From a bacterium (lineage in GTDB: Bacteria; ARS69): a stretch of 64,000 nucleotides of DNA. Below are positions 4,807-25,994 of the stretch, piece by piece. The notes beneath the pieces are model-generated. The model saw only the letters and a list, made by a program, of their open reading frames with translations, made no database searches and was not told the DNA's origin. The stretch is taken from positions 759,620 through 823,619 of the forward strand of contig JAWKKG010000002.1 of the NCBI GenBank assembly GCA_041393395.1, given 5' to 3'. The first letter of the stretch is position 1; each line of letters starts with the position of its first letter. Made by a program: the position numbers and the translations under genes.

Positions 4807-5355
4807 TTGGTTCCTTGGCTCTGGCTCGACGTGTTCGCTCTCGCCGTCGCGTCCACCGTGGCGGTCCTCGATCTGGACGTCCGGGTCGGCGACCGCGAGG
4901 CCGGTCGTGCGATCTACGGCGGGCTCGTGCTGCTCGGGCTGGTCGGCTCGTATCAGTACGCGGTGACGGAGGCGCAACTGCCGCTGCCGGGCTGGTTCGT
5001 GATCGCGTTCGCGGTGCTGTATCTGCCCTTCCTGCACACCGCGTTCATCGACCTTCGCACGACGGATCGCTTCGCACGGGAGGAGCTGCACGCGCTGCTC
5101 CTGAACCGGGACTTCCGCGCGCTCCAGCGAGGCTCCGGGCAGGATGTTCTGCGTGTGGGGAGACGTCGTCTCCGGATGCACTGGGAAGCTCACGACGAGG
5201 ACGACGGCATCACGATCGAGCTCGACGTCCACCCGAGCCTGTGGCCGGTGACCGTCTCGCGGCCGCACGTGGCCTTCGTGCGCGACCAGACCCATCTCGA
5301 GTACCTGCGTCGCGACATCCGACGCGAGCAGGCGGCGGATGACGCGTCTGTCTGA
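4807..5355 (+). CDS. hypothetical membrane protein
   Basis: TTG start preceded by GGGGAGG (6-nt spacer). Two or three hydrophobic helices (LWLDVFALAVASTVAVL, GGLVLLGLVGSY, WFVIAFAVLYLPFL). Confidence 0.4.
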   Translation: MVPWLWLDVFALAVASTVAVLDLDVRVGDREAGRAIYGGLVLLGLVGSYQYAVTEAQLPLPGWFVIAFAVLYLPFLHTAFIDLRTTDRFAREELHALLLNRDFRALQRGSGQDVLRVGRRRLRMHWEAHDEDDGITIELDVHPSLWPVTVSRPHVAFVRDQTHLEYLRRDIRREQAADDASV

Positions 5356-5364
5356 GCTCTCCGG

Positions 5365-5895
5365 TCAATCGAACGGACTGTTCCATTCGGCCCGCCCGTG
5401 ACGCACGGTCTCGAGTCCGGACAGCCGGGTCCGCAACGTGAAGTCGAGCTGCCAGCGGAGATCCCGGACCAGCTTCGAGAGGAGGGGCGGCTGCTTCTGG
5501 CTTCCCGCCCGCGTGAACGCGACGTGCACGTGGTCCGTGTGCGGTCCGTTCTTCTTGTTCTCGTAGCGCCGCGGTCCGCCCTTCTCCGCGCTCCAGATCT
5601 GCCGGTTCCAGATGACGTGATCCACGCCGAGTGGGGTGAGGTTCGAACCGAAGAGGCGGAGCAGGCCGTCGCCCAGCATCTTCTCGTACGGCTCGAACGC
5701 GCTCAGGTAGATGTCGGCCGCGCGACCCTCCGCGTGCGCGGACGGGCCACCGCTCCTGGTGGTGCGATCGACGAAGCCGCCGATGCCGGACCAGTGCGTG
5801 GAGTAGCCGAGCCGGGTGAGGAACGGGAACTGCTCCACCAGCGCCACGCGGAGCAAGAGGAGGATCGGTTGATCCTGTTTCCAGCGGACTCCCAT
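5365..5895 (-). CDS. LAS-fold zinc metallopeptidase (peptidase M15 / D-Ala-D-Ala carboxypeptidase-like)
   Basis: SxHxxGxAxD motif (SAHAEGRAADIY) and HxH motif (HTDHVHV), diagnostic of the VanY/M15 Hedgehog-DD-peptidase fold. Last gene of the minus-strand sigma/anti-sigma cluster. Confidence 0.6.
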   Translation of the reverse strand: MGVRWKQDQPILLLLRVALVEQFPFLTRLGYSTHWSGIGGFVDRTTRSGGPSAHAEGRAADIYLSAFEPYEKMLGDGLLRLFGSNLTPLGVDHVIWNRQIWSAEKGGPRRYENKKNGPHTDHVHVAFTRAGSQKQPPLLSKLVRDLRWQLDFTLRTRLSGLETVRHGRAEWNSPFD

Positions 5896-5985
5896 TGCGT
5901 CGCCGTCGGCCGGAGGGCGGGACGGGGCGCCGGCTCTCGCTACCCGCTCCCTTTCGTTCGGAAAGGGGCGGGGAGGTGCGACACG

Positions 5986-6579
5986 TCAGGGCACGACGCG
6001 GAACGTCGCGAGGCCCTTCTCGATCTCGAAACCGTGGGAGTCGACCGCACGGACCGTCCAGCTGCCGCCGACCAGCGAAGGAGGCAGCGCGTCCGGCGGG
6101 GGTACGATCGAGGTCGTCGTGGTGTGCCCGGTCCACAGGTCTCGTCCGGTCGCGTCGCGGATCACGATCTCGTAGGACACGGCGCCGGGAAACCCGGTCC
6201 ACGCGAAGCGCCCGAGCGTCGTCACGTCGCCGACGGGTTCCGTCACCTGGATCCCGCTCGATCCCCGCATCGTGGATTCCGCCGGCGCGGGCGAGTCGCG
6301 TCGCGCCATCGGGATCGCGACGAGCGCGATCGCCGCGGCGAGCGGCAGCGCGATCAGCCAGGGCGAGAGACGTCGGGTCGCGAGAGGCACGACCTTCGAG
6401 GGGGCGCCGCCGGTGACTTCCCGCGCCCGGCGGAACGCGTCGTCGAGCGCGCCCTCGGCGTAGAGTTCGTCCGCGAGCTCGTCGTCCGCGAGCAGACGTC
6501 GTTCGAAGTCGGCGCGCTCTTCCTCCGACAGCGTGCCGGCGAGGTACTCCAGCACCTGTACGCGATTCCGTTCGTTCAT
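5986..6579 (-). CDS. anti-sigma factor, single-pass membrane protein
   Basis: Internal Met MNERNRVQVLEYLAGTLSEEERADFERRLL.. (anti-sigma N-terminal helix) taken as start (ATG 6579). Overlaps the upstream sigma stop by 4 bp (ATGA). One TM (LIALPLAAAIALVAIPMA) followed by a ~110-aa extracytoplasmic domain. The upstream 113 aa of the track ORF are Arg-rich junk in the sigma gene's alternate frame. Confidence 0.7.
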   Translation of the reverse strand: MNERNRVQVLEYLAGTLSEEERADFERRLLADDELADELYAEGALDDAFRRAREVTGGAPSKVVPLATRRLSPWLIALPLAAAIALVAIPMARRDSPAPAESTMRGSSGIQVTEPVGDVTTLGRFAWTGFPGAVSYEIVIRDATGRDLWTGHTTTTSIVPPPDALPPSLVGGSWTVRAVDSHGFEIEKGLATFRVVP

Positions 6580-7079
6580 GCGAGCACTCCCCTCTCGCGC
6601 AGCAACTCGCGAAGCTTGCCGCGGCATCGATAGATGCGTCGGTACAGCACCGCCGGATCCAGTCCCTCGTCCTCGGCGATGCGGGCGGGGGCGTCGCCCC
6701 GCATCAGCCGCTGCAGGTAGTGGGCACATCCCGTGTCGCCGCCGCCGATCTTCTCGATGCTCTCGCGAAGCGCGCGTTCGACCTCGCGATCCTCGAGAGC
6801 TTCGAGAGGGGTCGGTGCGGCGTTCGGCAACGCCGCGTCCTCCGGGGACAGGTCGCGGGCGCGGACCTTCTGGCGCTGGTACCAGTTGCCGATCGTGTTG
6901 CGGAGGACCTGGAAGCACCAGGGGAGATCCGGTCGATCGCCACCCCGCTCGTGCACGATGCGCAGAGCATCCTGAGCCACGTCTTCCACCGCGTCCTCCG
7001 GGACCCGTCGCCTCGCGACCGCCACGAACCGCTGTCGCAGCTCGGTCAGCCAGGCCTCCCGTTCACGGGAGCTCGTCAT
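6576..7079 (-). CDS. ECF (group IV sigma-70) RNA polymerase sigma factor
   Basis: 167 aa with sigma-70 region 2 (..DVAQDALRIVHERGG..) and region 4 (..AEDEGLDPAVLYRRIYRCRGKLRELL). Start ATG 7079 is immediately preceded by a G8 tract. Confidence 0.85.
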   Translation of the reverse strand: MTSSREREAWLTELRQRFVAVARRRVPEDAVEDVAQDALRIVHERGGDRPDLPWCFQVLRNTIGNWYQRQKVRARDLSPEDAALPNAAPTPLEALEDREVERALRESIEKIGGGDTGCAHYLQRLMRGDAPARIAEDEGLDPAVLYRRIYRCRGKLRELLRERGVLA

Positions 7080-7106
7080 CCACCCCCCCCGTTTGCTGAG
7101 TTCGTC

Positions 7107-7130
7107 GGACCTCCCTCGGCCAGGAGGTCC
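7107..7130 (-). promoter_or_regulatory. perfect 8-bp stem / 8-nt loop hairpin between CHAT-protein stop and ECF sigma start
   Basis: ggacctcc-ctcggcca-ggaggtcc in the 64-bp gap 7080..7143. No U-tract follows, so it is not a classical terminator. Confidence 0.4.
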
Positions 7131-7143
7131 CCACGCGAAATCT

Positions 7144-9540
7144 CTACGAACGTCGCCAGCGGCTCAAGGCCAGAACCGCGAAGAGGAGCACGATGCCCCC
7201 GAAGGCCGGAAGAAGGTACCGTCGCGCGAGTCCGGGGGCGTCGCCGATCCCCTCGAGGGCCGCAACCGGGGTGTGTCCCAGCCCGGTCAGGACGAAGGCC
7301 GAGCAGTCCCGGGGCGAATACCCCTCCGCGGCCAGGGCCAGACGGGCCGTGCGCAGCGCGACGTCGCGCGGGGCGCCCGTCCGGAGCTCGTGGTAGAAGC
7401 GCTCCATGAAATGGGCGGCGGCCGCATCGTCGACGTCCCAGAGCGAGCTCACCACGCTCCGGGCGCCGGCCACCAGAAATGCCCGCGGGAGCCCCAGCGT
7501 GCCCTCTCCGAGCACGTTCCAGCCTCCGGCCGTCTCGCAGCCGCTCAGCGTGACGAGATCGACGGCCCGCGGCCGGGTCTCCACCGTCGCGGCGGTGACC
7601 AGCTCCGTGGAATCCGGCCCCGCGAGCGCGAGTCCCGACCGCTCGGGGCGGAGCGGCTCGAGGACCGCGTGCGTCGCGAAGTGGAGGACGGCGTGGGGGG
7701 CGGCGGCGAGGAACGCGGACGCGGTCGCCTCCGGGCCGACCAGGATCTCCGCGACCCCGGGCGCGATCGCGCGGGCTTCCTGACGGGCGTAGGGAAGCGG
7801 TCCGAGGTCCTCGCGCGTCGTCGCCTCCGGGGCGCCCCGGGCCGCGGTCTCCGGATCGGCGAACACGAGCACGCCGGTCGCGGGGGCGGGCCGCGCGGCG
7901 AGCACCGGCAGCAGCCAGCTCGCGGGCAGGTAGCTCACGGCGTAGCGCTCGCCCAGGGTTCCTCCGTCGCGCCCGGGCAACGGCATCGCCTCGAGCGGGA
8001 GGCCCGCCAGCGCGACCGACGGCACGAGGTAGAGTCGCTCGAGGTCCGCCGGCAGCGAGGCGACGACTCCCGAGAACAGGGCCTGGCCGATCGGAGCGAG
8101 CGCGGAACGGACGGCGTCCACGTCGCTCCCGGTGGCGAGCAGTTCCTGCACGCGCGCGAGCTCGGGACGGGACGGGACCTCCGCGTGGGCGGACACGATC
8201 GCATCGCCGGTGATCACGAACACGGCGGCCACGCCGTTCAGCGGTTCCGAGAACTCCACGAGCGCGGCCGGTCCGGCCGCCGCGATCGTCGCCTGCACCG
8301 AGGCGAGGTCCGGGGAACCGAGCTCCAGCTGGTCGCGCAACGTCGCCGACCGCCCGCGCTCGAGAGCGCCCCACGCGTCCACCACGCGTCCGTGCGCGAG
8401 TCGCACGGACGCGAGCGCCGCGTAGATCTCACCGGCCCGGTCGAACAGGGACGTCGCGGCGGCTTGCGCCTCGCCGCGACGCAAGGCTTCGAACTCGTCG
8501 ATCGAACGGACCAGCAGAGACTCCGCCCGCGCCACGTTGCCGGTCTCGATGAGCGCGCGCGCGTACATCGCCTCGTACAGCACCCGGTCGAGCGGCGAGA
8601 GCGAGGACAGGTCCAGCGAGTCGCCGATGCGCACGGCCTCGTCGGCGCGCCCGAGACCACACAGCATGAGCAGGCGATTGCCGCGGTTCGCGGCCAGGAA
8701 ACGTCCGGCGCCGTTCGCCGCCGCGGCCGAGTCCGCGCGGTCGAGAGTGCGCAGCCCTTCCTCGTAGCGGCCGGCGTCGTACTGGATGGTCGCGAGGCGA
8801 CCGAGCGGAACGGAGGGATCGCGACCCGCGCGCAGGTCCATCGCCACGGCGCTGTCGGCGCACGCGAGCGCCGCGTCGAAGCGGCCGAGGTTCCGGAGAA
8901 TGGAAGCGAGGCGATGGTTCGACGCGGAGATGCCGCGGTCGTTCCCGATCTCCCGATCGAGCACGAGCGCTTCCTCGGTGCGGCGTCGCGCTTCGAGCAG
9001 ATCGCCCGCGAGCGAGTAGGCGTTCGCGAGGTTGCCGAGAACCTGGGCTTCGCCGCGCCGATCCCCGCGCGCGCGCCGCGCCGCGAGGACGCGTTCCCAG
9101 CGCGGAATGGCCTCGCCGTACGCGTTTCGGACCGCGAACACGATCGCCGACGTGTTCAGCACCGATTCGATCGTGGTGGAGTCTTCCGAAGCGTCGGCGA
9201 ATCGTTCCGCCCGATCGAGTGCCTCGCGCGCGCGATCGAGCTCCCCGACGTGCAGATCGGACCAGCCCGCCGCTTGCAGGGCGCGCGCCGCGGGTCCGCT
9301 CTCGTCGGCGCCGCCGAGCGAGTCGGCCACGTCGCGCAGCTCGGCCGAGATCTCGGTCCGACGCATCGGGTCCGAGCGCTCCGCCTCGCCGAGCGCGTTC
9401 ACGATCGAAACGACGAGCGAGTCGGCCGGTGTGCTCGGCTCGGGGTAGTCGGCTGCCGCGGGGACGGCGAATGCGGCGGCGACGGCGAGGAACGCGCCGA
9501 GGGCCGCGCGGTGGTTCGGATACCGAGCGATCCGGCTCAC
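7144..9540 (-). CDS. exported TPR-repeat / CHAT-domain (caspase-like) protease with C-terminal membrane anchor
   Basis: GTG start at 9540 (GGAGA 4 nt upstream). Sec signal peptide (RIARYPNHRAALGAFLAVAAAFAVPAAA). Multiple TPR-like repeats (..EAQVLGNLANAYSLAGDLLEARRRTEEALVL..). CHAT His/Cys dyad contexts (PHAVLHFATHAV and VDLVTLSGCETAGG). C-terminal hydrophobic segment plus basic tail (LLPAFGGIVLLFAVLALSRWRRS). The first ~260 aa of the 1062-aa track ORF are Arg/Gly junk. Confidence 0.75.
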   Translation of the reverse strand: MSRIARYPNHRAALGAFLAVAAAFAVPAAADYPEPSTPADSLVVSIVNALGEAERSDPMRRTEISAELRDVADSLGGADESGPAARALQAAGWSDLHVGELDRAREALDRAERFADASEDSTTIESVLNTSAIVFAVRNAYGEAIPRWERVLAARRARGDRRGEAQVLGNLANAYSLAGDLLEARRRTEEALVLDREIGNDRGISASNHRLASILRNLGRFDAALACADSAVAMDLRAGRDPSVPLGRLATIQYDAGRYEEGLRTLDRADSAAAANGAGRFLAANRGNRLLMLCGLGRADEAVRIGDSLDLSSLSPLDRVLYEAMYARALIETGNVARAESLLVRSIDEFEALRRGEAQAAATSLFDRAGEIYAALASVRLAHGRVVDAWGALERGRSATLRDQLELGSPDLASVQATIAAAGPAALVEFSEPLNGVAAVFVITGDAIVSAHAEVPSRPELARVQELLATGSDVDAVRSALAPIGQALFSGVVASLPADLERLYLVPSVALAGLPLEAMPLPGRDGGTLGERYAVSYLPASWLLPVLAARPAPATGVLVFADPETAARGAPEATTREDLGPLPYARQEARAIAPGVAEILVGPEATASAFLAAAPHAVLHFATHAVLEPLRPERSGLALAGPDSTELVTAATVETRPRAVDLVTLSGCETAGGWNVLGEGTLGLPRAFLVAGARSVVSSLWDVDDAAAAHFMERFYHELRTGAPRDVALRTARLALAAEGYSPRDCSAFVLTGLGHTPVAALEGIGDAPGLARRYLLPAFGGIVLLFAVLALSRWRRS

Positions 9541-10301
9541 AGGTCTCCCGCGTTTCCGGAAGGCACGAAAGTCGAGGGCGGAAAGTCCTCCTCCGGCCGG
9601 ATGCGTTCGAACGTCACCTCGGCCGCGATCGAGTCGCCCACCCAGGTCGTGACGTGATACGGAAAGAGAATGCCTTCGACCTCCCGGAAGTCCGAAGCCT
9701 CCGAGACGAACTCCACGAGATCCTCGCCCTCGCCCATCTGGCCCCGCACGCCGACCACGAGCCCCGTGTCCGGATCCATCGCGTAGATGGTGCGCAGGCG
9801 ATCGTTCCAGTCGATCTGCACGCGGGGACGCCCCTGTTCGTCCGGCTCGAGCGCGACGACGTCGGCCGGGTCCGCACGCGCGAGCTCGAACGGTGCCACG
9901 ATCCGGTGGTACTGGAGCTTCATCGAATCGGACAGTTCCCGCTTCGACGCGTGCTGCTGACGTCGACCGCCGTTCCAGGCGAGCGCGCCGGCGAGGATGC
10001 GGACCTCCGTGCGGTCCGGGTAGCGGATCTCCGTGCGCAGTGAACCGTCGAGTGCGACCTCGAGGTCGATCTTGCCGTTCACGCCCTCGAGGTGGGAAGC
10101 GACCTGGCCGCGCATCGTCCAGCCGGAGGACGCCTTCAGCCGATCCGCACCCCCGTGGGCGGCCGTGGACCGGGCCACGAGCTCGGCGGCCGACACCGCC
10201 TCGGCGGCCGACGCCGGCAGGCCCGGGCCGAGGAGCCCGAGGCCGAGAGCGAGAATGATCGGGAGCCCCGCGGTGCGGGCCGCCTCCGGGATTCGGGTCA
10301 C
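9537..10301 (-). CDS. hypothetical exported protein (possibly LolA/RseB-like beta-barrel; unverified)
   Basis: GTG start at 10301 with GGAGG 6 nt upstream. Signal peptide (LPIILALGLGLLGPGLPASAAEA). Stop overlaps the CHAT gene start (GTGA), suggesting translational coupling. No confident domain call. Confidence 0.5.
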   Translation of the reverse strand: MTRIPEAARTAGLPIILALGLGLLGPGLPASAAEAVSAAELVARSTAAHGGADRLKASSGWTMRGQVASHLEGVNGKIDLEVALDGSLRTEIRYPDRTEVRILAGALAWNGGRRQQHASKRELSDSMKLQYHRIVAPFELARADPADVVALEPDEQGRPRVQIDWNDRLRTIYAMDPDTGLVVGVRGQMGEGEDLVEFVSEASDFREVEGILFPYHVTTWVGDSIAAEVTFERIRPEEDFPPSTFVPSGNAGDL

Positions 10302-10473: not shown

Positions 10474-11313
10474 ATGGCCGAGTTCCGCGGTTTCGGCGGA
10501 GCGGCCCTCGTCACCGGCGCGACCTCGGGGATCGGACTCGAGCTCGCACGGCTCCTCGCGGCCCGGGGCATGCATCTCATCCTCGTGGCCCGGTCCGCGG
10601 AGAACCTGCGCATCCTGGCGAACAAGCTCGCCCAGAGTCATCGTATTCGCGCGGTCTCGGTGCCGATGGACCTTTCCCGCCCGGATGCCGCCGCTCGCCT
10701 CGTGGAGGCGTTGCGCGGCATCGATCTCACGGTGGATCTGCTCGTGAACAACGCCGCGTTCGGGACCTACGGCCCGTTCGCGGATCAGGGTGCGGCGCGG
10801 GAGGCGGAGATGATCCGTCTCAACGTGTCGCTGCCCACGGAGCTCACCGCCCTGTTCCTGCCCGGCATGATCCGGCGCAAGCGGGGTGTGGTTCTGAACG
10901 TCGCGTCCACGGCCGGCTTCGCGCCGGTTCCTTGGATGGGAACGTACGCGGCCACGAAGGCGTACCTCATCTCGTGGACGCACTCGCTCGCCACGGAGCT
11001 GGCGGGGACGGGCGTGCAGGTCGCGGCGCTCTGTCCGGGCTCCACCGCGACGAACTTCCACGCCGTGTCCGGCGCCGCCGGGCGTCGGCCGCGCACGGGA
11101 CCCCAGCAGACGGCCTCGCAGGTCGCGGAGGAGTGCCTGCGCGGACTGGACCGGAAGCAACGGATCATCGTGACGGGAGGCGTGAATCGCCTGCACGCGC
11201 ACCTGTTCCGGGTGCTTCCGCCGTCGTGGGCGTCGCGGCTCGCGGACGTCTTCCAGCGTCCGGGGGCGGCGCGCGTCGGGGCGACCGGAGAGACCTCGGT
11301 CCGCGCGACCTAG
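10474..11313 (+). CDS. SDR-family short-chain dehydrogenase/reductase
   Basis: TGATSGIG Rossmann motif, NNAA motif and YAATK catalytic Tyr/Lys. AAAGGAG upstream of ATG. Confidence 0.85.
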   Translation: MAEFRGFGGAALVTGATSGIGLELARLLAARGMHLILVARSAENLRILANKLAQSHRIRAVSVPMDLSRPDAAARLVEALRGIDLTVDLLVNNAAFGTYGPFADQGAAREAEMIRLNVSLPTELTALFLPGMIRRKRGVVLNVASTAGFAPVPWMGTYAATKAYLISWTHSLATELAGTGVQVAALCPGSTATNFHAVSGAAGRRPRTGPQQTASQVAEECLRGLDRKQRIIVTGGVNRLHAHLFRVLPPSWASRLADVFQRPGAARVGATGETSVRAT

Positions 11314-18317: not shown

Positions 18318-19306
18318 GGGTACTTTCGGGGAATCAGCCCTCGGGGGCGTTGCACCTCGGGAACTGGTTCGGGGCGATTCGGCAGTTCCTGGCGCTGCAG
18401 GAGGAGCACACCTGCTTCTTCTTCATCGCGAGCTACCACGCCCTCACCACGCAACGGGATCCGGCGATCGTGCGGGAAAACATCCGCGACGTGGCGGCGA
18501 GCTACCTGGCGCTCGGCCTCGACCCGGCGCGGAGCGTGCTGTTCGATCAGTCCGACCTGCCCGAGCACCACGAGATCGCCTGGTTCCTCACGTGTCTCAC
18601 GCCGGTCGGCATGCTCCAGCGCGCGCACAGCTACAAGGACAAGGTCGCGCGCGGGCTCGACGCCTCGCACGGCCTGTTCGCGTATCCCGTGCTGATGGCC
18701 GCCGACATCCTCGCGTACGACGCGGATCTCGTCCCGGTGGGCAAGGACCAGAAGCAGCACGTGGAGATCGCGCGCGACCTCGCCACCCGCGTCAACAACG
18801 AGTGGGGCGATCTCCTGCGCTTGCCCGAGCCGTACACGCTCGACGAGTCCGCGGTGGTGCCCGGTATCGACGGCGAGAAGATGTCGAAGAGCTACGACAA
18901 CACGATCGGTCTGTTCCTGCCGCCGAAAGCGCTGAAGAAACGGGTCATGTCGATCGTGACCGACTCCACGCCCGTGGAGGATCCGAAGGACCCGGACAAG
19001 GACACCGTGTTCGCGCTGTATCGACTGTTCGCCTCTCCCGCGGAGACGGAGGAGATGGCGCGGCTCTACCGTGAAGGTGGCTACGGCTACGGGGACGCGA
19101 AGAAGGCGCTCCTCGAGAAGGTCGAGGCGCTCGTGGGGCCGGCCCGCGACAAGCGGGACGACTGGCTGGCCCGTCCGGATGATCTGGAAGACGTGCTCGC
19201 CGACGGCGCCCGCCGTGCCCGTGAGGTCGCCCGCCCCGTGCTGGAGCGACTTCGGACGGCTGTGGGCTTCCCGCCGCGCCCGCGGGGGGCGGCCGCCGGA
19301 CGCTAG
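18314..19306 (+). CDS. trpS: tryptophan--tRNA ligase
   Basis: Class I aaRS HIGH-type motif (ALHLGNWFGAI) and KMSKS (GEKMSKSYDN). Start ATG overlaps the metH stop (ATGA). Confidence 0.9.
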   Translation: MRVLSGNQPSGALHLGNWFGAIRQFLALQEEHTCFFFIASYHALTTQRDPAIVRENIRDVAASYLALGLDPARSVLFDQSDLPEHHEIAWFLTCLTPVGMLQRAHSYKDKVARGLDASHGLFAYPVLMAADILAYDADLVPVGKDQKQHVEIARDLATRVNNEWGDLLRLPEPYTLDESAVVPGIDGEKMSKSYDNTIGLFLPPKALKKRVMSIVTDSTPVEDPKDPDKDTVFALYRLFASPAETEEMARLYREGGYGYGDAKKALLEKVEALVGPARDKRDDWLARPDDLEDVLADGARRAREVARPVLERLRTAVGFPPRPRGAAAGR

Positions 19307-19367
19307 CATTCCTCGCGCGTGTCAAAGTAGCGGCGACCGGTTTCGCTTCCGCGTGGCGTCTGGTAGG

Positions 19368-21725
19368 ATGCTTGGAATCGATCGAGCACCTCTTCTCGCC
19401 GTCCTTCGAGGATCGATGCTGCCGATGTCCGGATCTCCGCGTGTGCCGGGCCGAACGAGTCGTTCCGTTCCGGAGCGTCTCCGAGCCGTCACCGCTCTCC
19501 TGTCTACTTCGCGTGTCGCTCCGGCGCCGATTCGCGTGGCCCTGCTCGGGGCGGCGCTGGCCGGTGCGGCGATCCCGTCCGTCGGTCGGGCGGCGTTCGT
19601 CGACGTCACCGCGACCGACACCGGGCCGGCACTGGTCGGCGTGACCTACGGCCTCGGCTGGCGGGATTTCGATCTCGACGGAGATCCCGATGCGTTCGTC
19701 TGCCGCCACTACCTGCGCCCGGTCGTGTTCCGGAACGGGGGCGACGGGACGATCGCGTACCCGTTCTTCCCGCAGTTGTTCGACTCGCCCGACGATCACC
19801 ACGGCGGACTCATCGCGGACTTCGATCAGGACGGGGACCCGGACATCTATCTCACCGGGGGCGCGGACGCCGGTGCGAGCACCGTGCCCAAGAAGATGTA
19901 CCGCAACGACGGCAACTTCCAGTTCCGGGACGTGGCGCCCGCGTGGGGGCTCGCCGATTCACTCGCTCGGGGCCGCGCCTCCTCGGCGATGGACGTCGAC
20001 GCCGACGGCGACGTGGACCTCTTCATCGCGAAGGCGTCGCGGGTCGCGTCGCCGAACTCGCTGTTCCTGAACGACGGGAACCAGAACTTCACCGACGTCG
20101 CGGCGGCGGCGGGCGTCGCCGACGATTTCGGGTGCGTCGGCGGCATCTGGGCCGACTACGATCGCGATGGCGATCCGGATCTCCTGATCGGGGGCGAGGA
20201 GGAGTTCACGTTCGAGACGCGCCTCTACCGCAACGACGGTTCGCTGACGTTCACGAACGTCACGTCGACCGCGCTGCCGGGGATCGGTCAGATCGCGGCG
20301 GCCGCGTTCGGCGACTACGACAACGACGGGGACCTCGATCTCGCGGCCGGCCTCGGCGATCGTGGCCTGTTCGACGGCATGCTGTGGAGCGCCGATTCGC
20401 TGTACTTCTTCTTCAACACGCAGCACGGCGACAACGGCCTCGACGGGATCGCCTTCACGCAGACGGGCGACAGCGCGACATACAACCTCGCGCTCGACGG
20501 CTTCTTCCAGCCGGACTCGATCTGGATCTCGGAGGCCGCCTTCCACCCGCAGTTCAGTCCGTTCACGCTCCCGTTCGAGATCTTCAACGCGCCTCCGTTC
20601 GATCCCGGCGTCTCGACCGGGTTCTACCTCTGGACGAGTCCGTCCCTGCAGACCTGGCAGATGCGATGCAGCGCGCCCCCGGAGGGTCAGACCAGCTTCG
20701 CCGGAGTGATCCGGACGAACGGCACGATCACGGCGGCGTCGCTGGTCGGGTCCGAACCGTTCACGCAGGGTCCGCGCGGAACGCGACTGTGGAGGAACGA
20801 CGGCGGCGTGTTCACGGACGTGACGATCGCCGCGGGCATCACCGACACGACGAACGTCCACCAGCTCGTCTGGGTCGATCTCGATCAGGACGGACGGCTG
20901 GATCTCTACGCGCTGAACAAGGGAGACACGGCGAACCTGAACCTCCCGGACGTCTTCTACCGGAATCTCGGGGGGGGAGTCTTCGTGGACGCGACCGCGG
21001 CCATGAATCTCGCGGGGCCGAGTCTCGGCCTCGGGGACGCCTGCGCGTTCGAAGACTACGATCTGGATCAGGATCTCGATCTGATGCTCACGTGCGGCAC
21101 CGGCCCGCGCTTCATCGCCGGCATGGACCGACTGCGGGTCTACCGGAACGACGGACCGACGGGAAACGCGTTGCGGGTCCGCCTGCAGGGCGTGTACTCG
21201 ACCCGCGACGGCTACGGCGCGTGGGTCACCTGCGTGTCCGGCGTCGCCGGCCGTCAGGTGCGCTATGTCACCGGCAACAACTGGCGCGGCCAGCAGGAGA
21301 TGCTCGACTCCTGGTTCGGTCTCGGGCCGGACGCCGTGGCCGACACGGTGCGTGTCGAGTGGCCTTCGGGGGCGATCAACGTGCTGACGGATGTCTCCGC
21401 CGGCGAGATCTCCGTCGTGGAGAATCACCCGCTGACCGAGGCGCCGGTCGTGACTCCCGCCCTGGGGTTCTCGATTCGCGGATTCCCGAACCCGGGCACG
21501 GAGGAGATCCGGTTCCGGGTGCGCGCGCGCGCCGAGCGACCGGCCGACGTCGCCATCTACGATCCCGCCGGGCGCCGCGTCCGGACCGGGACGCTCGCGC
21601 CCGGCGAGGACGAGTTCCCCTGGGACCTGCGTGACGGGAACGGACTGCGCGTGGGCTCCGGCGTGTACTTCGCGCGCGTTCGCGAGGACGGCCGCACCGC
21701 GAGCACGCGGGTCGTCGTTCGCTGA
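19368..21725 (+). CDS. FG-GAP repeat / ASPIC-UnbV (CRTAC1-like) secreted protein with T9SS/FlgD-Ig-like C-terminal domain
   Basis: Repeated DxDGDGDxD and YRNDG Ca-binding FG-GAP motifs. ASPIC/UnbV block (GYGAWVTCVSG..RYVTGNNWRGQQEMLDSWFGLG..VEWPSG). C-terminal ~85 aa beta-sandwich (..DVAIYDPAGRRVRTGTL..GVYFARV..). Start uncertain (ATG 19368, or downstream MLPM/MSG). Upstream part of the track ORF overlaps trpS. Confidence 0.7.
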   Translation: MLGIDRAPLLAVLRGSMLPMSGSPRVPGRTSRSVPERLRAVTALLSTSRVAPAPIRVALLGAALAGAAIPSVGRAAFVDVTATDTGPALVGVTYGLGWRDFDLDGDPDAFVCRHYLRPVVFRNGGDGTIAYPFFPQLFDSPDDHHGGLIADFDQDGDPDIYLTGGADAGASTVPKKMYRNDGNFQFRDVAPAWGLADSLARGRASSAMDVDADGDVDLFIAKASRVASPNSLFLNDGNQNFTDVAAAAGVADDFGCVGGIWADYDRDGDPDLLIGGEEEFTFETRLYRNDGSLTFTNVTSTALPGIGQIAAAAFGDYDNDGDLDLAAGLGDRGLFDGMLWSADSLYFFFNTQHGDNGLDGIAFTQTGDSATYNLALDGFFQPDSIWISEAAFHPQFSPFTLPFEIFNAPPFDPGVSTGFYLWTSPSLQTWQMRCSAPPEGQTSFAGVIRTNGTITAASLVGSEPFTQGPRGTRLWRNDGGVFTDVTIAAGITDTTNVHQLVWVDLDQDGRLDLYALNKGDTANLNLPDVFYRNLGGGVFVDATAAMNLAGPSLGLGDACAFEDYDLDQDLDLMLTCGTGPRFIAGMDRLRVYRNDGPTGNALRVRLQGVYSTRDGYGAWVTCVSGVAGRQVRYVTGNNWRGQQEMLDSWFGLGPDAVADTVRVEWPSGAINVLTDVSAGEISVVENHPLTEAPVVTPALGFSIRGFPNPGTEEIRFRVRARAERPADVAIYDPAGRRVRTGTLAPGEDEFPWDLRDGNGLRVGSGVYFARVREDGRTASTRVVVR

Positions 21726-23349: not shown

Positions 23350-23614
23350 TCCGGGAACTCGGGAGGTTGGTCTCGACGTTCGCCCGGACGGCCCCTCCCG
23401 GCGGGGACGCGGGTGGCGGGACGGCGGGGCTGGGCGAATCGTCGCAAGGGATTGCTAATCGGGAATATACGATCCGAAAGCCGGAGTCGCCACCCGGAGC
23501 CGGGGATTCGCGTCCCGACGCTCCGGCTGCTAGAATGGGGGCGCCCCGTGTCCGGGCCGCCTCTGGGCGGCGTAACCGTCTCGACGCCTCCGTCACGCGC
23601 CTACGAGGAGAATC

Positions 23615-25930: not shown

Positions 25931-25994
25931 CCCGCGCCCGACGAACGGAAGACCGGAGCGGAGTCCGAGGAACAATCCGAGGAGCGGAAACGAA

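Follow-up and report, generated by a model that had tools for sequence, protein, structure and literature searches.

Gene organization of the locus

The window analysed here, a 64-kb stretch of DNA, carries five co-oriented genes in which an ECF-type sigma factor and an anti-sigma factor lie beside a caspase-like TPR-CHAT protein. The question raised by this locus is which of these genes form one system, and whether the CHAT protein is the protease that sets the sigma factor free. The five minus-strand ORFs proposed in the initial annotation are all present (Table 1), with GC3 values of 0.83-0.89 that are of the coding type, and the identities given to them (TPR-CHAT, ECF sigma, anti-sigma, exported protein of LolA fold, LAS-type peptidase) hold. 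Two junctions are 4-bp overlaps, GTGA between the LolA-like and CHAT genes (9537-9540) and ATGA between the sigma and anti-sigma genes (6576-6579); gaps of 64 bp (7080-7143) and 90 bp (5896-5985) separate CHAT from sigma and anti-sigma from the LAS peptidase, respectively. Flanking the cluster are a divergent SDR gene (10474-11313, plus strand) and a convergent gene (4807-5355, plus strand).

The proposal of one five-gene transcription unit is not supported, in view of the synteny of the LolA-like and LAS genes and of candidates for separate promoters and terminators found between the genes, namely a promoter-like motif and hairpins. The real unit is a three-gene cassette of CHAT, sigma and anti-sigma.

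Table 1. Features of the locus, with positions in the window
Feature	Position	Strand	Basis
Exported LolA-superfamily protein, 254 aa, outside module	9537..10301	-	AF2 and Foldseek, synteny
TPR-CHAT caspase-like protein, 798 aa, GTG start	7144..9540	-	Pfam, hydropathy, AF2, PDB fold match
Signal peptide of CHAT protein (predicted)	about 9451-9540	-	hydropathy
TPR array of CHAT protein	about 8341-9429	-	Pfam TPR families
CHAT domain	about 7276-8283	-	Pfam CHAT
Catalytic His624 codon, CHAT domain (HFATHA)	7669..7671	-	His in 54/54 orthologues
Catalytic Cys668 codon, CHAT domain (LSGCETAGG)	7537..7539	-	Cys in 54/54 orthologues
C-terminal TM anchor of CHAT protein (predicted)	7156-7221	-	hydropathy
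GC-rich hairpin, 9-bp stem GGACCTCCT/GGGAGGTCC, 14 nt past CHAT stop	7107..7130	-	RNA fold
Bipartite promoter-like motif GGGAGGT-N13-CAAAC, 11 nt 5' of sigma ATG	7091..7115	-	pattern search
Divergent ECF-type sigma factor, 167 aa	6576..7079	-	family profile against PDB ECF sigmas; TIGR02937 below cut-off
Single-pass class-I anti-sigma factor, 197 aa	5986..6579	-	overlap with sigma, hydropathy, hhalign
Single TM segment of anti-sigma, W74-M91	6307-6360	-	hydropathy
Arg105 codon of anti-sigma (MRG; hydrophobic-Arg-Gly/Ser motif)	6265..6267	-	Arg in 27/27 subgroup anti-sigmas
Extracytoplasmic part of anti-sigma, residues 95-197, about 103 aa	5989-6297	-	hydropathy
Strong hairpin, about 12-bp stem CCGCCCCTTTC/GAAAGGGAGCGG, 15 nt past anti-sigma stop	5944..5971	-	RNA fold
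LAS-type (M15/Extensin-like_C-related) zinc-peptidase-fold protein, 176 aa, outside module	5365..5895	-	homologue profiles

Conservation of the cassette

For the sigma family 80 genome loci were recovered, including 76 (L008-L083) in FCB-type MAGs. Of 76 genome loci, 53 have a CHAT gene no more than 1.5 kb from sigma. Among the 44 that are fully flanked, with at least 3.5 kb of sequence on either side of the sigma gene, CHAT is adjacent in 37 and not adjacent in the other seven. Three gene orders were found. CHAT may come first, followed by sigma and anti-sigma; it may come last, after sigma and anti-sigma, with 4-bp overlaps; or the arrangement is divergent. The three genes come and go jointly between conserved backbone genes, as seen when locus L004 is compared with L088-L090. 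Moreover, a sample of 80 TPR-CHAT loci picked irrespective of sigma gave 24 ECF-like sigma genes within 1.5 kb of the TPR-CHAT gene where 3.1 were expected, an enrichment of about 8-fold, and one is nearby in 10 of the 26 fully flanked loci. The linkage of CHAT to the ECF sigma/anti-sigma pair is conserved and not a matter of chance, and the neighbourhood conservation that the initial annotation proposed to check exists for these three genes and not for the LolA-like and LAS peptidase genes.

Pairwise identities of the sigma and CHAT proteins are correlated (r = 0.91 over 1128 pairs; r = 0.77 within the subgroup, a value reached by 0 of 2000 permutations); any two genes passed on together by vertical descent should show such correlated divergence.

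Sigma and anti-sigma factors

The sigma protein has zero Pfam matches and is found by TIGR02937 with an E value of 4e-9, yet its 36.3 bits are below the cut-off of 42.9. Its family profile matches full-length ECF sigma factors of the PDB over sigma2 and sigma4 (SigL, E 2.4e-7). There are 101 homologues at E <= 1e-3, the first 100 with 40-99% identity and mostly without a Pfam match, and the family is confined to MAGs of Eisenbacteria, Krumholzibacteriota, Gemmatimonadota and Fibrobacteraceae.

The cytoplasmic domain of the anti-sigma factor (residues 1-55) has no zinc ligands, and the N-terminus shows homology to anti-sigma domains of the zf-HC2 type (95.7%, E 8.5e-9 in hhalign against relatives that bear zf-HC2). 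A gene of the same architecture is placed downstream of sigma in almost all loci with a callable downstream gene, and all anti-sigmas of the family have an extracytoplasmic domain of 100-170 aa. The type of this ectodomain varies with the CHAT subtype: where CHAT is of the 800-aa kind the ectodomain is FN3/Ig-like (weak match, E about 0.07), and where it is of the 1000-aa kind the ectodomain is helical and TPR-like.

Arg105 lies 14 residues outside the TM segment, is invariant within an otherwise variable juxtamembrane linker and is among the 7 invariant columns of the anti-sigma alignment (A6). We speculate that its motif is a candidate cleavage or recognition site, with Arg105 perhaps at P1. 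The motif is also kept in five aligned CHAT-less loci (L006 = L011, L010, L013, L015, L023) and therefore may be structural or serve another protease.

The TPR-CHAT protein

Profile search of the CHAT protein confirmed the CHAT domain (Pfam, 9.6e-57, 193 bits against a cut-off of 24) and TPR families. Residues 11-32 form a signal-like segment that ends AAA/DY, and a hydrophobic helix (774-795) followed by RWRRS closes the protein. The signal peptide and C-terminal anchor described in the initial annotation are both predicted by hydropathy and by the AF2 model (pLDDT 89, pTM 0.86), and on the same basis TPR-CHAT is predicted to lie outside the cytoplasm, as part of a type-I membrane protein. 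Of 51 CHAT orthologues, 49 have the signal-like segment and only 16 the anchor. NCBI has a record of an identical protein of 798 aa.

The His/Cys dyad is present in all 54 sigma-linked orthologues that cover the column, despite identities of only ~20-25% between subgroups, which argues for retained catalysis; the Cys668 column is invariant in a 76-sequence CHAT alignment too. The best fold match in the whole PDB is DdvA (8rw5, 8rot_A), with E values of 1e-16 to 1e-17 and TM scores of 0.50-0.53; the match at E 1.8e-17 extends over about 765 aligned columns and outranks Csx29 and separase.

The initial annotation knew of no described ECF regulated-proteolysis pathway that employs CHAT, but systems joining TPR-CHAT to an ECF sigma are already known in two cases. 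In DdvA/DdvS of Myxococcus xanthus a periplasmic TPR-CHAT is fused to the anti-sigma factor and a site-1 role was proposed for it (PMC11506125, PMC6061681). RseP degrades DdvA after removal of TPR-CHAT, and the site-1 role of CHAT is there a hypothesis, the dyad mutants having no phenotype and no signal being known (PMC11506125). In Craspase, the TPR-CHAT protein Csx29 cuts Csx30, which inhibits an ECF-like sigma (PMC10028731).

Promoter-like motif and hairpins

In the form GGGAGNT-N12-13-CAAAY the promoter-like motif has a single match in the 64 kb (expected 0.04), placed in the CHAT-sigma gap, and it is found directly 5' of sigma in about 20 related loci. Its conservation in this gap suggests that the sigma/anti-sigma pair probably has a separate promoter, and we regard the motif as probably the cognate, autoregulated one. 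In relatives a second copy lies 5' of nearby genes that encode secreted or T9SS-tail proteins, and no copy was found 5' of the CHAT or LolA-like gene in the window and its subgroup. Since the LolA-like stop overlaps the CHAT start, the LolA-like gene probably supplies the CHAT promoter here.

The first hairpin (7107..7130; -23 kcal/mol for the fold of 7080-7146) is without a T tract, runs with its 3' arm into the -35-like upstream element of the motif, and may act as an attenuator or terminator. The second (5944..5971), also without a T tract, lies in a region (5893-5988) folding at -43.7 kcal/mol and is a possible end of the sigma/anti-sigma transcript.

Proposed mechanism and alternatives

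The predicted extracytoplasmic position of TPR-CHAT together with the conserved linkage makes a regulatory or proteolytic role on the anti-sigma factor a reasonable hypothesis. From adjacency and analogy, the CHAT protein is most likely both the sensor and the site-1 protease that acts on the anti-sigma, and we give an even chance to the cassette being a split DdvA/DdvS-like switch in which CHAT senses a signal, cuts the anti-sigma and frees the sigma. The TPR-CHAT protein would be exported by its Sec signal peptide and, in this subgroup, held by the C-terminal anchor on the outer face of the inner membrane, so that the catalytic domain would be within about 20 residues of the membrane. The TPR array would detect an extracytoplasmic, probably proteinaceous, signal and this would switch on the His624/Cys668 dyad. 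The CHAT domain would then cleave the anti-sigma on the extracytoplasmic side, hydrophobic-Arg105-Gly being the candidate site, and the trimmed anti-sigma would become a substrate of an RseP-type site-2 protease. The freed sigma would drive its own promoter at 7091-7115 and, in relatives, also neighbouring genes for secreted or T9SS-sorted proteins.

A rather unlikely possibility is that the CHAT protein is an output: a protease of the periplasm or surface, or an effector of another kind, that belongs to the sigma's regulon and might process envelope proteins or secreted or T9SS cargo. The anti-sigma would then be inactivated by another route. Genes kept next to ECF sigmas are often among their targets (PMC7826278). 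In the sigma, anti-sigma, CHAT order (L027, L034-L036, L040) CHAT overlaps the anti-sigma stop by 4 bp and is downstream of the motif; this co-transcription with sigma fits an output role equally well, and the second motif copies 5' of genes for secreted proteins with T9SS sorting domains are in its favour. However, CHAT sits upstream of the motif in the window and its subgroup, with no copy 5' of it or of the LolA-like gene, and the solved structure nearest to it in fold is an anti-sigma's sensor domain. The union of anti-sigma domain and TPR-CHAT in one DdvA polypeptide also points to a regulatory relationship (PMC11506125).

Alternatively, TPR-CHAT may be a non-proteolytic partner whose TPR array docks on the anti-sigma ectodomain and shields it from site-1/site-2 proteases until a signal triggers release, the dyad being used for self-processing or other substrates. 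RseB protects RseA in this manner, and RseP is blocked by the bulk of the DdvA domain. TPR arrays are modules that bind proteins, ectodomain type and CHAT subtype change together, and the demonstrated role of TPR-CHAT in DdvA is steric, as truncated DdvA is degraded by RseP and dyad mutants are like wild type. Nevertheless we think this improbable: the dyad is invariant (54/54) across deep divergence, and an ectodomain of ~100 aa would still require removal or unfolding before RseP-type access.

The outer genes bear on whether the system is larger. The 254-aa protein has a signal-like N-terminus (AF2 pLDDT 88); of the LolA/RseB-like fold proposed for it, the LolA superfamily was recovered by Foldseek (3buu, E 1.8e-7; also LolA3/LolB) and RseB matched poorly (TM 0.24). 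In three relatives (L088-L090) its homologues adjoin the same SDR gene with neither CHAT nor sigma present, and the gene is found at 1 of more than 80 sigma-family loci (L004), so that by synteny it is part of the backbone and not of the module. The LAS protein carries H-x6-D...H-x2-H-x-H, with H54/D61 and H119/H122/H124 conserved. It has no Pfam match itself; its homologues match Extensin-like_C (12/50), Peptidase_M15_4 (5/50) and VanY (1/50), and its profile matches PDB 9flh at 1e-8. Hydropathy found no signal peptide, and tblastn found the gene in none of the related loci, being specific to this genome at this position; in L004 a backbone gene directly follows the anti-sigma. One operon and system of all five genes, with the LolA-like protein as RseB-like partner of CHAT and the LAS protein as component or output, would agree with the co-orientation, tight spacing, 4-bp LolA-like/CHAT overlap and genuine LolA-like fold (RseB is in the same superfamily), but is very unlikely and largely refuted by this synteny, with the poor RseB match, the LAS protein lacking a signal peptide and the motif and hairpins between genes also against it.

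It is just as hard to believe that the cassette is an anti-phage defence sensor of DdvA/DdvS or type III-E Craspase type controlling a defence island: both characterised TPR-CHAT/ECF systems are defence-related (PMC11506125, PMC10028731) and the sigma has a weak NCBIfam match to the type III-E CRISPR sigma (E 5.9e-4), but its 19.8 bits are far under the cut-off of 100, the genes characterised within ~20 kb (MetH, Ino1, LysR, SDR, methyltransferase, secreted subtilases) are of housekeeping or secreted-protein type, and in relatives the second copies of the motif stand before genes for secreted or T9SS proteins and not before defence genes. The defence-like module of the initial annotation gained nothing significant from PADLOC on the five proteins (two matches, E 3e-4 and 6e-4; generic TPR model, BovA; 16-18 bits), and neither a CRISPR array nor cas context is present, the sole Rfam match being a chance-level CRISPR-DR12 (E 0.36) inside the CHAT gene.

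Under the preferred split-switch reading the cassette would be a variant of DdvA: there anti-sigma and TPR-CHAT form one polypeptide, whereas here they are two separate proteins. As enzyme and substrate are separated, the idea that CHAT makes the first cut for sigma release becomes testable on separate proteins.

Organisation of the gene cluster

The window has a G+C content of ~70%, and the GC3 of the five minus-strand ORFs of the cluster lies between 0.83 and 0.89, as for real genes. The initial annotation was correct in what it observed of these genes (the ORFs and their domain identities). The interpretation placed on them, an operon without precedent that joins an ECF sigma factor and its anti-sigma factor to a CHAT protease, is partly supported: the five genes shrink to three and the claim of no precedent is lost. 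The cassette can now be placed in a conserved family with a close structural relative, and a probable promoter and a candidate cleavage motif have been recognised.

Coordinates of the genes and sequence elements discussed (positions in the window, or in the comparison locus where an L-number is given)
Feature	Position	Strand	Remark
LolA-like exported protein	9537-10301	-
TPR-CHAT protein	7144-9540	-
Sigma factor	6576-7079	-
Anti-sigma factor	5986-6579	-
LAS (M15-like) peptidase-fold protein	5365-5895	-
LolA-like/CHAT junction	9537-9540	-	GTGA overlap
CHAT/sigma junction	7080-7143	-	64-bp gap
Sigma/anti-sigma junction	6576-6579	-	ATGA 4-bp overlap
Anti-sigma/LAS junction	5896-5985	-	90-bp gap
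Short-chain dehydrogenase (SDR) gene, cluster border	10474-11313	+	divergent
Convergent gene, cluster border	4807-5355	+
Promoter-like motif	7091-7115	-	GGGAGGT-N13-CAAAC
GC hairpin, 9 bp	7107-7130	-	after CHAT stop; overlaps upstream (-35-like) motif element
Hairpin, 12 bp	5944-5971	-	after anti-sigma stop
Sigma Cys152	6624-6626	-
Sigma Cys118	6726-6728	-
Sigma Cys55	6915-6917	-	WCFQVLRN
ORF, ~386 aa	11327-12487	-	between SDR and methyltransferase genes
Subtilase (Peptidase_S8), first of pair	23576-25930
Subtilase (Peptidase_S8), second of pair	25905-28316
FG-GAP/ASPIC protein	18960-21725
Second copies of the motif	L016:5679-5703, L017:9132-9156, L024:9125-9148, L028:9242-9267, L022:2922-2945, L026:2942-2965, L037:2905-2928
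CAKTATGCA sites	L047:7872-7880, L050:7865-7873, L056:7873-7881, L060:7867-7875, L062:7881-7889, L065:7860-7868, L067:7886-7894, L079:7864-7872, and others	sigma strand
CHAT locus between two ECF sigma genes	L002:4050-11004
1072-aa anti-sigma	L033:8549-11767
Distant-subgroup anti-sigma (example)	L049:8542-9348

The ~386-aa ORF has coding-type composition, no Pfam match and a signal-like N-terminus (MVFAPLLGLLLGIGAADSAG). Elsewhere in the window, both members of an adjacent pair of subtilases carry FlgD-Ig domains, the first with a T9SS C-terminal sorting domain in addition, and a gene for an FG-GAP/ASPIC protein lies near them. This neighbourhood fits an FCB-superphylum organism using type IX secretion.

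The TPR-CHAT protein

Profile searches recovered both domains assigned to this protein at the outset. The CHAT domain (PF12770) covers residues 485-753 with E 9.6e-57 and 193 bits against a curated cut-off of 24, and N-terminal to it lies a TPR superhelix, with matches to TPR_12, TPR_2 and TPR_MalT and with paired helices over residues 38-400 in the AF2 model. An identical 798-aa protein is on record at NCBI from a MAG contig, and the next-best homologue is 26% identical. The catalytic dyad His624/Cys668 is invariant in all 54 sigma-linked orthologues that cover the region; in 76 broader CHAT homologues the cysteine is also invariant and the histidine nearly so (at least 90%).

The protein is predicted to be periplasmic because residues 11-32 at the N-terminus are signal-like (AAA/DY) and a hydrophobic helix near the C-terminus (774-795) precedes the positive tail RWRRS. 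Among 51 full-length sigma-linked orthologues the signal-like N-terminus occurs in 49 and the C-terminal anchor in 16, mostly 780-870-aa proteins of the window's subgroup. Given this anchor, only ~20 residues separate the end of the CHAT domain (~755) from the membrane, which would bring the active site near the membrane surface.

The AF2 model (pLDDT 89, pTM 0.86) has as its best match in the whole PDB the cryo-EM structure of DdvA from Myxococcus xanthus (8rw5, E 1.8e-17; 8rot_A, E 1.4e-16; TM 0.50-0.53 over ~765 aligned columns by Foldseek), followed by Csx29 of Craspase (E ~1e-13 to 1e-14) and then by separase. At the sequence level the PDB matches were all to TPR proteins (LGN, Pins, kinesin light chain), and DdvA and Csx29 were recovered by fold search only. 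An Rfam match to CRISPR-DR12 inside the CHAT coding region (7240-7266, minus strand; 22.6 bits against a gathering score of 37, E 0.36) is a single copy without an array and was taken as chance.

The sigma factor and its anti-sigma factor

The 167-aa sigma factor has no match in Pfam, and its score against TIGR02937 (36.3 bits) is below the cut-off of 42.9. As neither Pfam nor NCBIfam gave anything above cut-off, its identity rests on a profile of its family, positions 30-178 of which align with the ECF sigma factors SigL, SigH, CnrH and RpoE of the PDB (E 2.4e-7 to 1e-3). With sigma2 and sigma4 domains only, it is predicted to be a divergent ECF (group IV) member lying under the thresholds of the family models. 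Its homologues form ~100 clusters of 40-72% identity, nearly all of them missed by Pfam. A weak match to the NCBIfam model for the type III-E CRISPR sigma factor was not accepted as membership: it scores 19.8 bits where the cut-off is 100, and the locus lacks cas context.

In its sigma4 half the protein has two cysteines, Cys152 and Cys118 (C..YL and YRCR), that are invariant in all 42 aligned family members, and Cys55 is present in most of them. Conserved cysteines are unusual among ECF sigma factors, and these might form a redox or metal site, an idea made notable by the lack of zinc ligands in the partner anti-sigma factor of the same subgroup.

The anti-sigma factor is a single-pass protein (TM W74-M91). 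Weak zf-HC2 matches were obtained for 3 of the 18 anti-sigma factors of the window's subgroup, and when the alignment of this subgroup was compared by hhalign with that of relatives matching PF13490 (1.4e-8), the N-terminus and TM proved homologous to zf-HC2 anti-sigma factors (95.7%, E 8.5e-9). The H-x3-C-x2-C zinc ligands are absent from the window protein, which has R/D/L at these positions (RRLLADDELADEL), and its anti-sigma domain is a non-zinc class-I ASD. Fourteen residues past the TM a hydrophobic-Arg-Gly/Ser motif is present in 27 of 27 anti-sigma factors of the subgroup; its Arg105 is the one position that never varies in the stretch linking the TM to the folded ectodomain. The ectodomain of the window's subgroup gave only non-significant FN3-like matches (E ~0.07).

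In a more distant subgroup (L041-L083) the anti-sigma gene lies directly downstream of the sigma gene and its product keeps H-x3-C-x2-C (Pfam zf-HC2, 1.4e-8); its ectodomain is helical, TPR-like and ~150 aa long, as against the small domain in the window's subgroup. The type of ectodomain therefore changes together with the CHAT subtype. In one Gemmatimonadales MAG (L033) the gene after sigma encodes 1072 aa, with the anti-sigma N-terminus and TM of the family and ~960 extracytoplasmic residues that match nothing in Pfam. As it contains neither CHAT nor any other Pfam domain, it was discarded as a Rosetta-stone fusion within the sigma family.

The promoter-like motif and the probable transcription units

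In the window's subgroup a bipartite element, (C)GGGAGAT-N12-13-CAAAY, is sharply conserved directly 5' of sigma; the start codon often follows after exactly 7 nt, a leaderless geometry. The pattern GGGAGNT-N12-13-CAAAY has a single match in the 64-kb window (chance expectation 0.04), in the CHAT-sigma gap. Present 5' of sigma and of a few neighbours and rare elsewhere, the element looks like an ECF-cognate promoter, and we infer that the window copy is the sigma factor's own promoter. The usual ECF promoter is of the type GGAAC...CGT, from which this motif differs. Second copies in seven related loci precede neighbouring genes for secreted proteins (beta-propeller/PQQ-like, FG-GAP), and two of four such proteins tested carry T9SS C-terminal sorting domains, which hints at surface or secreted cargo as the sigma regulon. 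A PWM scan of the window for further copies returned only a low-scoring antisense site at ~18055 in metH, which was taken as chance, so no regulon member was identified in the window.

In the distant subgroup, where CHAT and sigma are divergent, the GGGAGAT motif is absent and ~14 loci have an element of their own, CAKTATGCA, ~50-70 nt 5' of the sigma start and always on the sigma strand.

The motif and the hairpins between the genes point to [LolA-like + CHAT], [sigma + anti-sigma] and [LAS peptidase] as the likeliest units, predicted from sequence features and with read-through possible. The same features, the motif in the CHAT-sigma gap and the hairpins after CHAT and after anti-sigma, speak with the synteny against the single five-gene operon that had been proposed. 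A sigma-70 promoter scan gave no sites, and a terminator scan gave one weak site (two overlapping calls) in the SDR/LolA-like intergenic region.

Conservation of a three-gene cassette

A genome scan with one genome per species yielded 76 sigma-family loci (L008-L083), the ORFs of which were searched with all five window proteins. The hosts are MAGs labelled Eisenbacteria/Eiseniibacteriota, Krumholzibacteriota, Gemmatimonadota or Fibrobacteraceae, or unclassified. In 53 of the 76 loci, and in 37 of the 44 (84%) that have 3.5 kb or more of sequence on each side, sigma has a CHAT gene no further than 1.5 kb away. Three gene orders were found. The first, CHAT>sigma>anti-sigma, is that of the window; in the second, sigma>anti-sigma>CHAT, the genes overlap by 4 bp; the third, divergent CHAT<>sigma, is that of the distant subgroup (sigma 30-38% identical). 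An anti-sigma-domain gene with one TM follows sigma in nearly all loci with a callable downstream gene, usually with an overlap of 4 or 8 bp.

The two outer genes behave differently. The LolA-like protein occurs in just one sigma-family locus, that of the closest relative (L004), and the LAS peptidase in none of those searched, so that the neighbourhood conservation expected of all five genes holds for CHAT, sigma and anti-sigma only. In three loci fetched by means of LolA-like homologues (L088-L090) the gene stands beside the same divergent SDR gene and is followed immediately by the backbone genes also seen in the window (18x-aa, 16x-aa, LysR), with no CHAT, sigma or anti-sigma gene at the locus; BLASTP bore out that the three loci are syntenic with the window and with L004. 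The backbone reads MetH, polysaccharide genes, SDR, LolA-like, cassette, two small genes, LysR, Ino1. CHAT, sigma and anti-sigma therefore make up a three-gene cassette, present or absent within a conserved housekeeping backbone, and the LAS peptidase gene is an extra gene specific to the window genome. It follows that a reading in which all five genes form one system is very improbable.

The LolA-like protein has a signal-like N-terminus and an AF2 model (pLDDT 88) with an open beta-barrel and helical lid, matching 3buu (Foldseek E 1.8e-7, TM 0.53-0.59) and also LolA3/LolB of Porphyromonas gingivalis and LolA. The LolA/RseB-like fold considered in the initial annotation is thus confirmed as to the LolA superfamily and fails as to RseB (TM 0.24); this poor match and the synteny of L088-L090 rule the protein out as an RseB-like partner.

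The zinc and catalytic motif of LAS peptidases is present in this protein as H54-x6-D61 and H119-x2-H122-x-H124, positions that vary little or not at all among 50 homologues. Pfam has no match for the window protein itself; among the 50 homologues 12 match Extensin-like_C, five Peptidase_M15_4 and one VanY, and the profile matched 9flh of the PDB at 1e-8 and Hedgehog-N weakly. No signal peptide was found in the window copy, and the ORF is not extendable upstream because the bounding stop is the stop codon of the anti-sigma gene. The LAS-type family is large (1196 representatives at E <= 1e-3) and frequently forms a domain of 400-1700-aa proteins; it has a PHROG tape-measure match (2.6e-5) and marginal Pfam coverage, and by sequence just one solved structure is related to it, 9flh ('LysM domain-containing protein').

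Sigma and CHAT diverge in step: their pairwise identities are strongly correlated, with r = 0.91 overall and r = 0.77 in the subgroup, the latter reached by none of 2000 permutations. This argues that the pair is inherited as a unit; such a correlation would also be expected from shared vertical descent. Between 4500 and 11500 no Rfam RNA family was detected, nor were there repeats at the flanks of the cassette of the kind that would suggest a mobile element.

Relationship to known systems

The initial claim that no ECF pathway with a CHAT protease had been described does not stand, as DdvA/DdvS and Csx29/Csx30 have both been reported; in the searchable literature the link between CHAT and ECF sigma factors appears in the DdvA and Craspase papers only.

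DdvA of M. xanthus is an anti-sigma factor with a periplasmic TPR-CHAT part of ~900 residues, and its partner is the ECF sigma factor DdvS (PMC11506125, PMC6061681). In the model proposed for it, a signal makes the CHAT domain cut the juxtamembrane linker autoproteolytically, and RseP then cleaves; only the RseP step and a steric role have been shown so far (PMC11506125). DdvA-like factors, reported only in Myxococcota and one Comamonas, are characterised by a zinc-binding anti-sigma domain, a TM helix and a TPR-CHAT part in a single chain, an active site without the three-helix motif, a dimeric arrow architecture and control of CBASS/CRISPR islands (PMC11506125).

The window system shares with DdvA/DdvS a predicted extracytoplasmic TPR-CHAT protein with intact His/Cys dyad, an ECF sigma factor and a class-I anti-sigma domain, and Foldseek places its CHAT protein in the separase/craspase-type TPR-CHAT fold of DdvA-like factors. 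As proposed for DdvA, CHAT would be the site-1 protease ahead of RseP. However, in DdvA the anti-sigma domain, TM and TPR-CHAT are fused and autoproteolysis is proposed to occur in trans within a dimer, whereas here a 197-aa anti-sigma factor with a small ectodomain is accompanied by a separate, predictedly exported 798-aa TPR-CHAT protein. The CHAT proteins of the window's subgroup have a C-terminal anchor of their own, the window anti-sigma factor lacks zinc ligands, and the sigma factor comes from a different, Pfam-invisible family than DdvS. The hosts are FCB-type MAGs rather than Myxococcota, and no CBASS/CRISPR regulon was seen here. Since the window CHAT protein has a predicted signal peptide but lacks an anti-sigma domain, the single polypeptide that characterises DdvA is missing and the window system is not a member of its family but only a split analogue. 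By shared fold, predicted compartment and ECF/anti-sigma partnership, the cassette is best described as a split DdvA-like module.

In type III-E Craspase, Csx29 (TPR-CHAT) cleaves Csx30, the inhibitor of an ECF-like sigma factor, the only experimentally shown TPR-CHAT control of an ECF-like sigma factor by inhibitor cleavage (PMC10028731). As there, a TPR-CHAT protein stands beside an ECF-like sigma factor and its inhibitor, and Csx29 is the second-best fold match. Craspase, however, works in the cytoplasm under RNA guidance as part of a CRISPR system, and its Csx30 is not an anti-sigma factor of the class-I membrane type, whereas the window CHAT is predicted to be exported and its anti-sigma factor spans the membrane. 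No cas gene, and none for Cas7-11/gRAMP or Csx30/Csx31, is among the characterised genes within ~20 kb, and no CRISPR array was found in the 7 kb scanned with Rfam. The window system belongs to neither the DdvA nor the Craspase family.

Within the ECF family as presented in the main text of its classification (PMC7826278), the sigma factor is typical in its sigma2 and sigma4 domains, its length (~170 aa), a co-transcribed anti-sigma factor and a probably autoregulated bipartite promoter. It departs from that description in being missed by Pfam Sigma70_r2/r4 and in its two invariant sigma4 cysteines; no ECF group with a CHAT neighbour is mentioned in this main text.

Proposed mechanism

Canonical regulated intramembrane proteolysis (RIP) of anti-sigma factors is exemplified by DegS and RseP acting on RseA, with RseB, in Escherichia coli and by PrsW and RasP acting on RsiW in Bacillus subtilis. 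The mechanism proposed here resembles it in a single-pass anti-sigma factor whose ectodomain removal would license site-2 cleavage, and in a dedicated extracytoplasmic protease as signal-gated first step. The cluster contains no DegS-like or RseP gene, and the LolA-fold neighbour is not an RseB orthologue and is not conserved with the cassette. To our knowledge the site-1 enzymes described are a PDZ serine protease (DegS), PrsW and signal peptidase, none of them a clan-CD caspase-like cysteine protease.

We propose that the CHAT protein is both sensor and site-1 protease for the anti-sigma factor; beyond linkage, topology and fold this is inference, and we regard the chances that it is right as even. 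The TPR array would sense a periplasmic signal and CHAT would become active and cut the anti-sigma linker in trans, a site-2 protease would then act on the cut anti-sigma factor, and the released sigma factor would autoregulate from its putative promoter in the CHAT-sigma gap. Separase cleaves after arginine, and clan CD more generally includes arginine- or lysine-specific enzymes; with an active site predicted near the membrane and an invariant Arg105, the hydrophobic-Arg105-Gly/Ser sequence is our candidate site. Against this proposal, seven well-flanked sigma loci have no adjacent CHAT gene, and the Arg motif is kept in all five of these seven that were aligned.

CHAT might instead be an output of the sigma factor and not an input. 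The arrangement in which CHAT is the last gene of the sigma operon fits this equally well, although on the whole we consider it unlikely. An improbable alternative, to about the same degree, is that CHAT acts as a non-catalytic shield; for DdvA, in addition to the steric role, dyad mutants were without phenotype (PMC11506125). A defence function is scarcely plausible: PADLOC gave no significant match (its two matches, to a generic TPR model and BovA, have E 3e-4 and 6e-4), the 7 kb scanned with Rfam have no cas/CRISPR context, and the characterised genes within ~20 kb are housekeeping or secreted-protein genes.

Generality and significance

The wider occurrence of the pairing was assessed in 80 TPR-CHAT metagenome loci picked by CHAT-core alignment alone, disregarding sigma and export signals. 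ECF-like genes were ~8-fold denser within 1.5 kb of CHAT than further off (24 observed, 3.1 expected; Poisson p ~5e-14) and present in 10 of the 26 fully flanked loci; these numbers are approximate because the search model, built iteratively from RpoE, SigW and the window sigma factor, is ad hoc. They suggest that the TPR-CHAT/ECF pairing is common.

One of three individually looked-up CHAT homologues, on an unrelated metagenome contig (L002), is flanked by two different, Pfam-recognisable ECF sigma genes. One of these is divergent and backed by a 133-aa gene and a PDZ-domain protein; the other lies downstream of CHAT and is followed by a 282-aa gene. This is an independent CHAT/ECF linkage, with a PDZ protease as a possible partner.

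The split TPR-CHAT/ECF cassette is a variant of a kind already known and itself partly understood. The sigma family is new, and the association with CHAT is kept in 84% of its fully flanked loci. We tentatively suggest, as something possible rather than probable, that split cassettes constitute a widespread class of regulated proteolysis in Eisenbacteria, Krumholzibacteriota, Gemmatimonadota, Fibrobacterota and well beyond, in which an exported clan CD protease would be the signal-gated site-1 enzyme and would cut a separate anti-sigma factor in trans at the juxtamembrane hydrophobic-Arg-Gly/Ser; this would be the ancestral or general form and DdvA a rare fused derivative. The extension beyond these four phyla is drawn from the ECF enrichment beside TPR-CHAT genes in soil metagenomes.

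In DdvA the putative enzyme and substrate are one polypeptide (PMC11506125). Here the putative protease and its putative substrate are separate proteins, so simple co-expression, mutation of the dyad and mapping of the cleavage site can put the proposal to the test; the split architecture thus makes the open question of a CHAT site-1 protease experimentally tractable, and the conserved promoter-like motif could serve both as a reporter and as a way into the regulon. If the proposal is true, a caspase-like enzyme class would be added to the short list of site-1 proteases of bacterial transmembrane signalling, and a function would be assigned to many of the exported TPR-CHAT proteins that abound, unexplained, in bacteria of soil and sediment.
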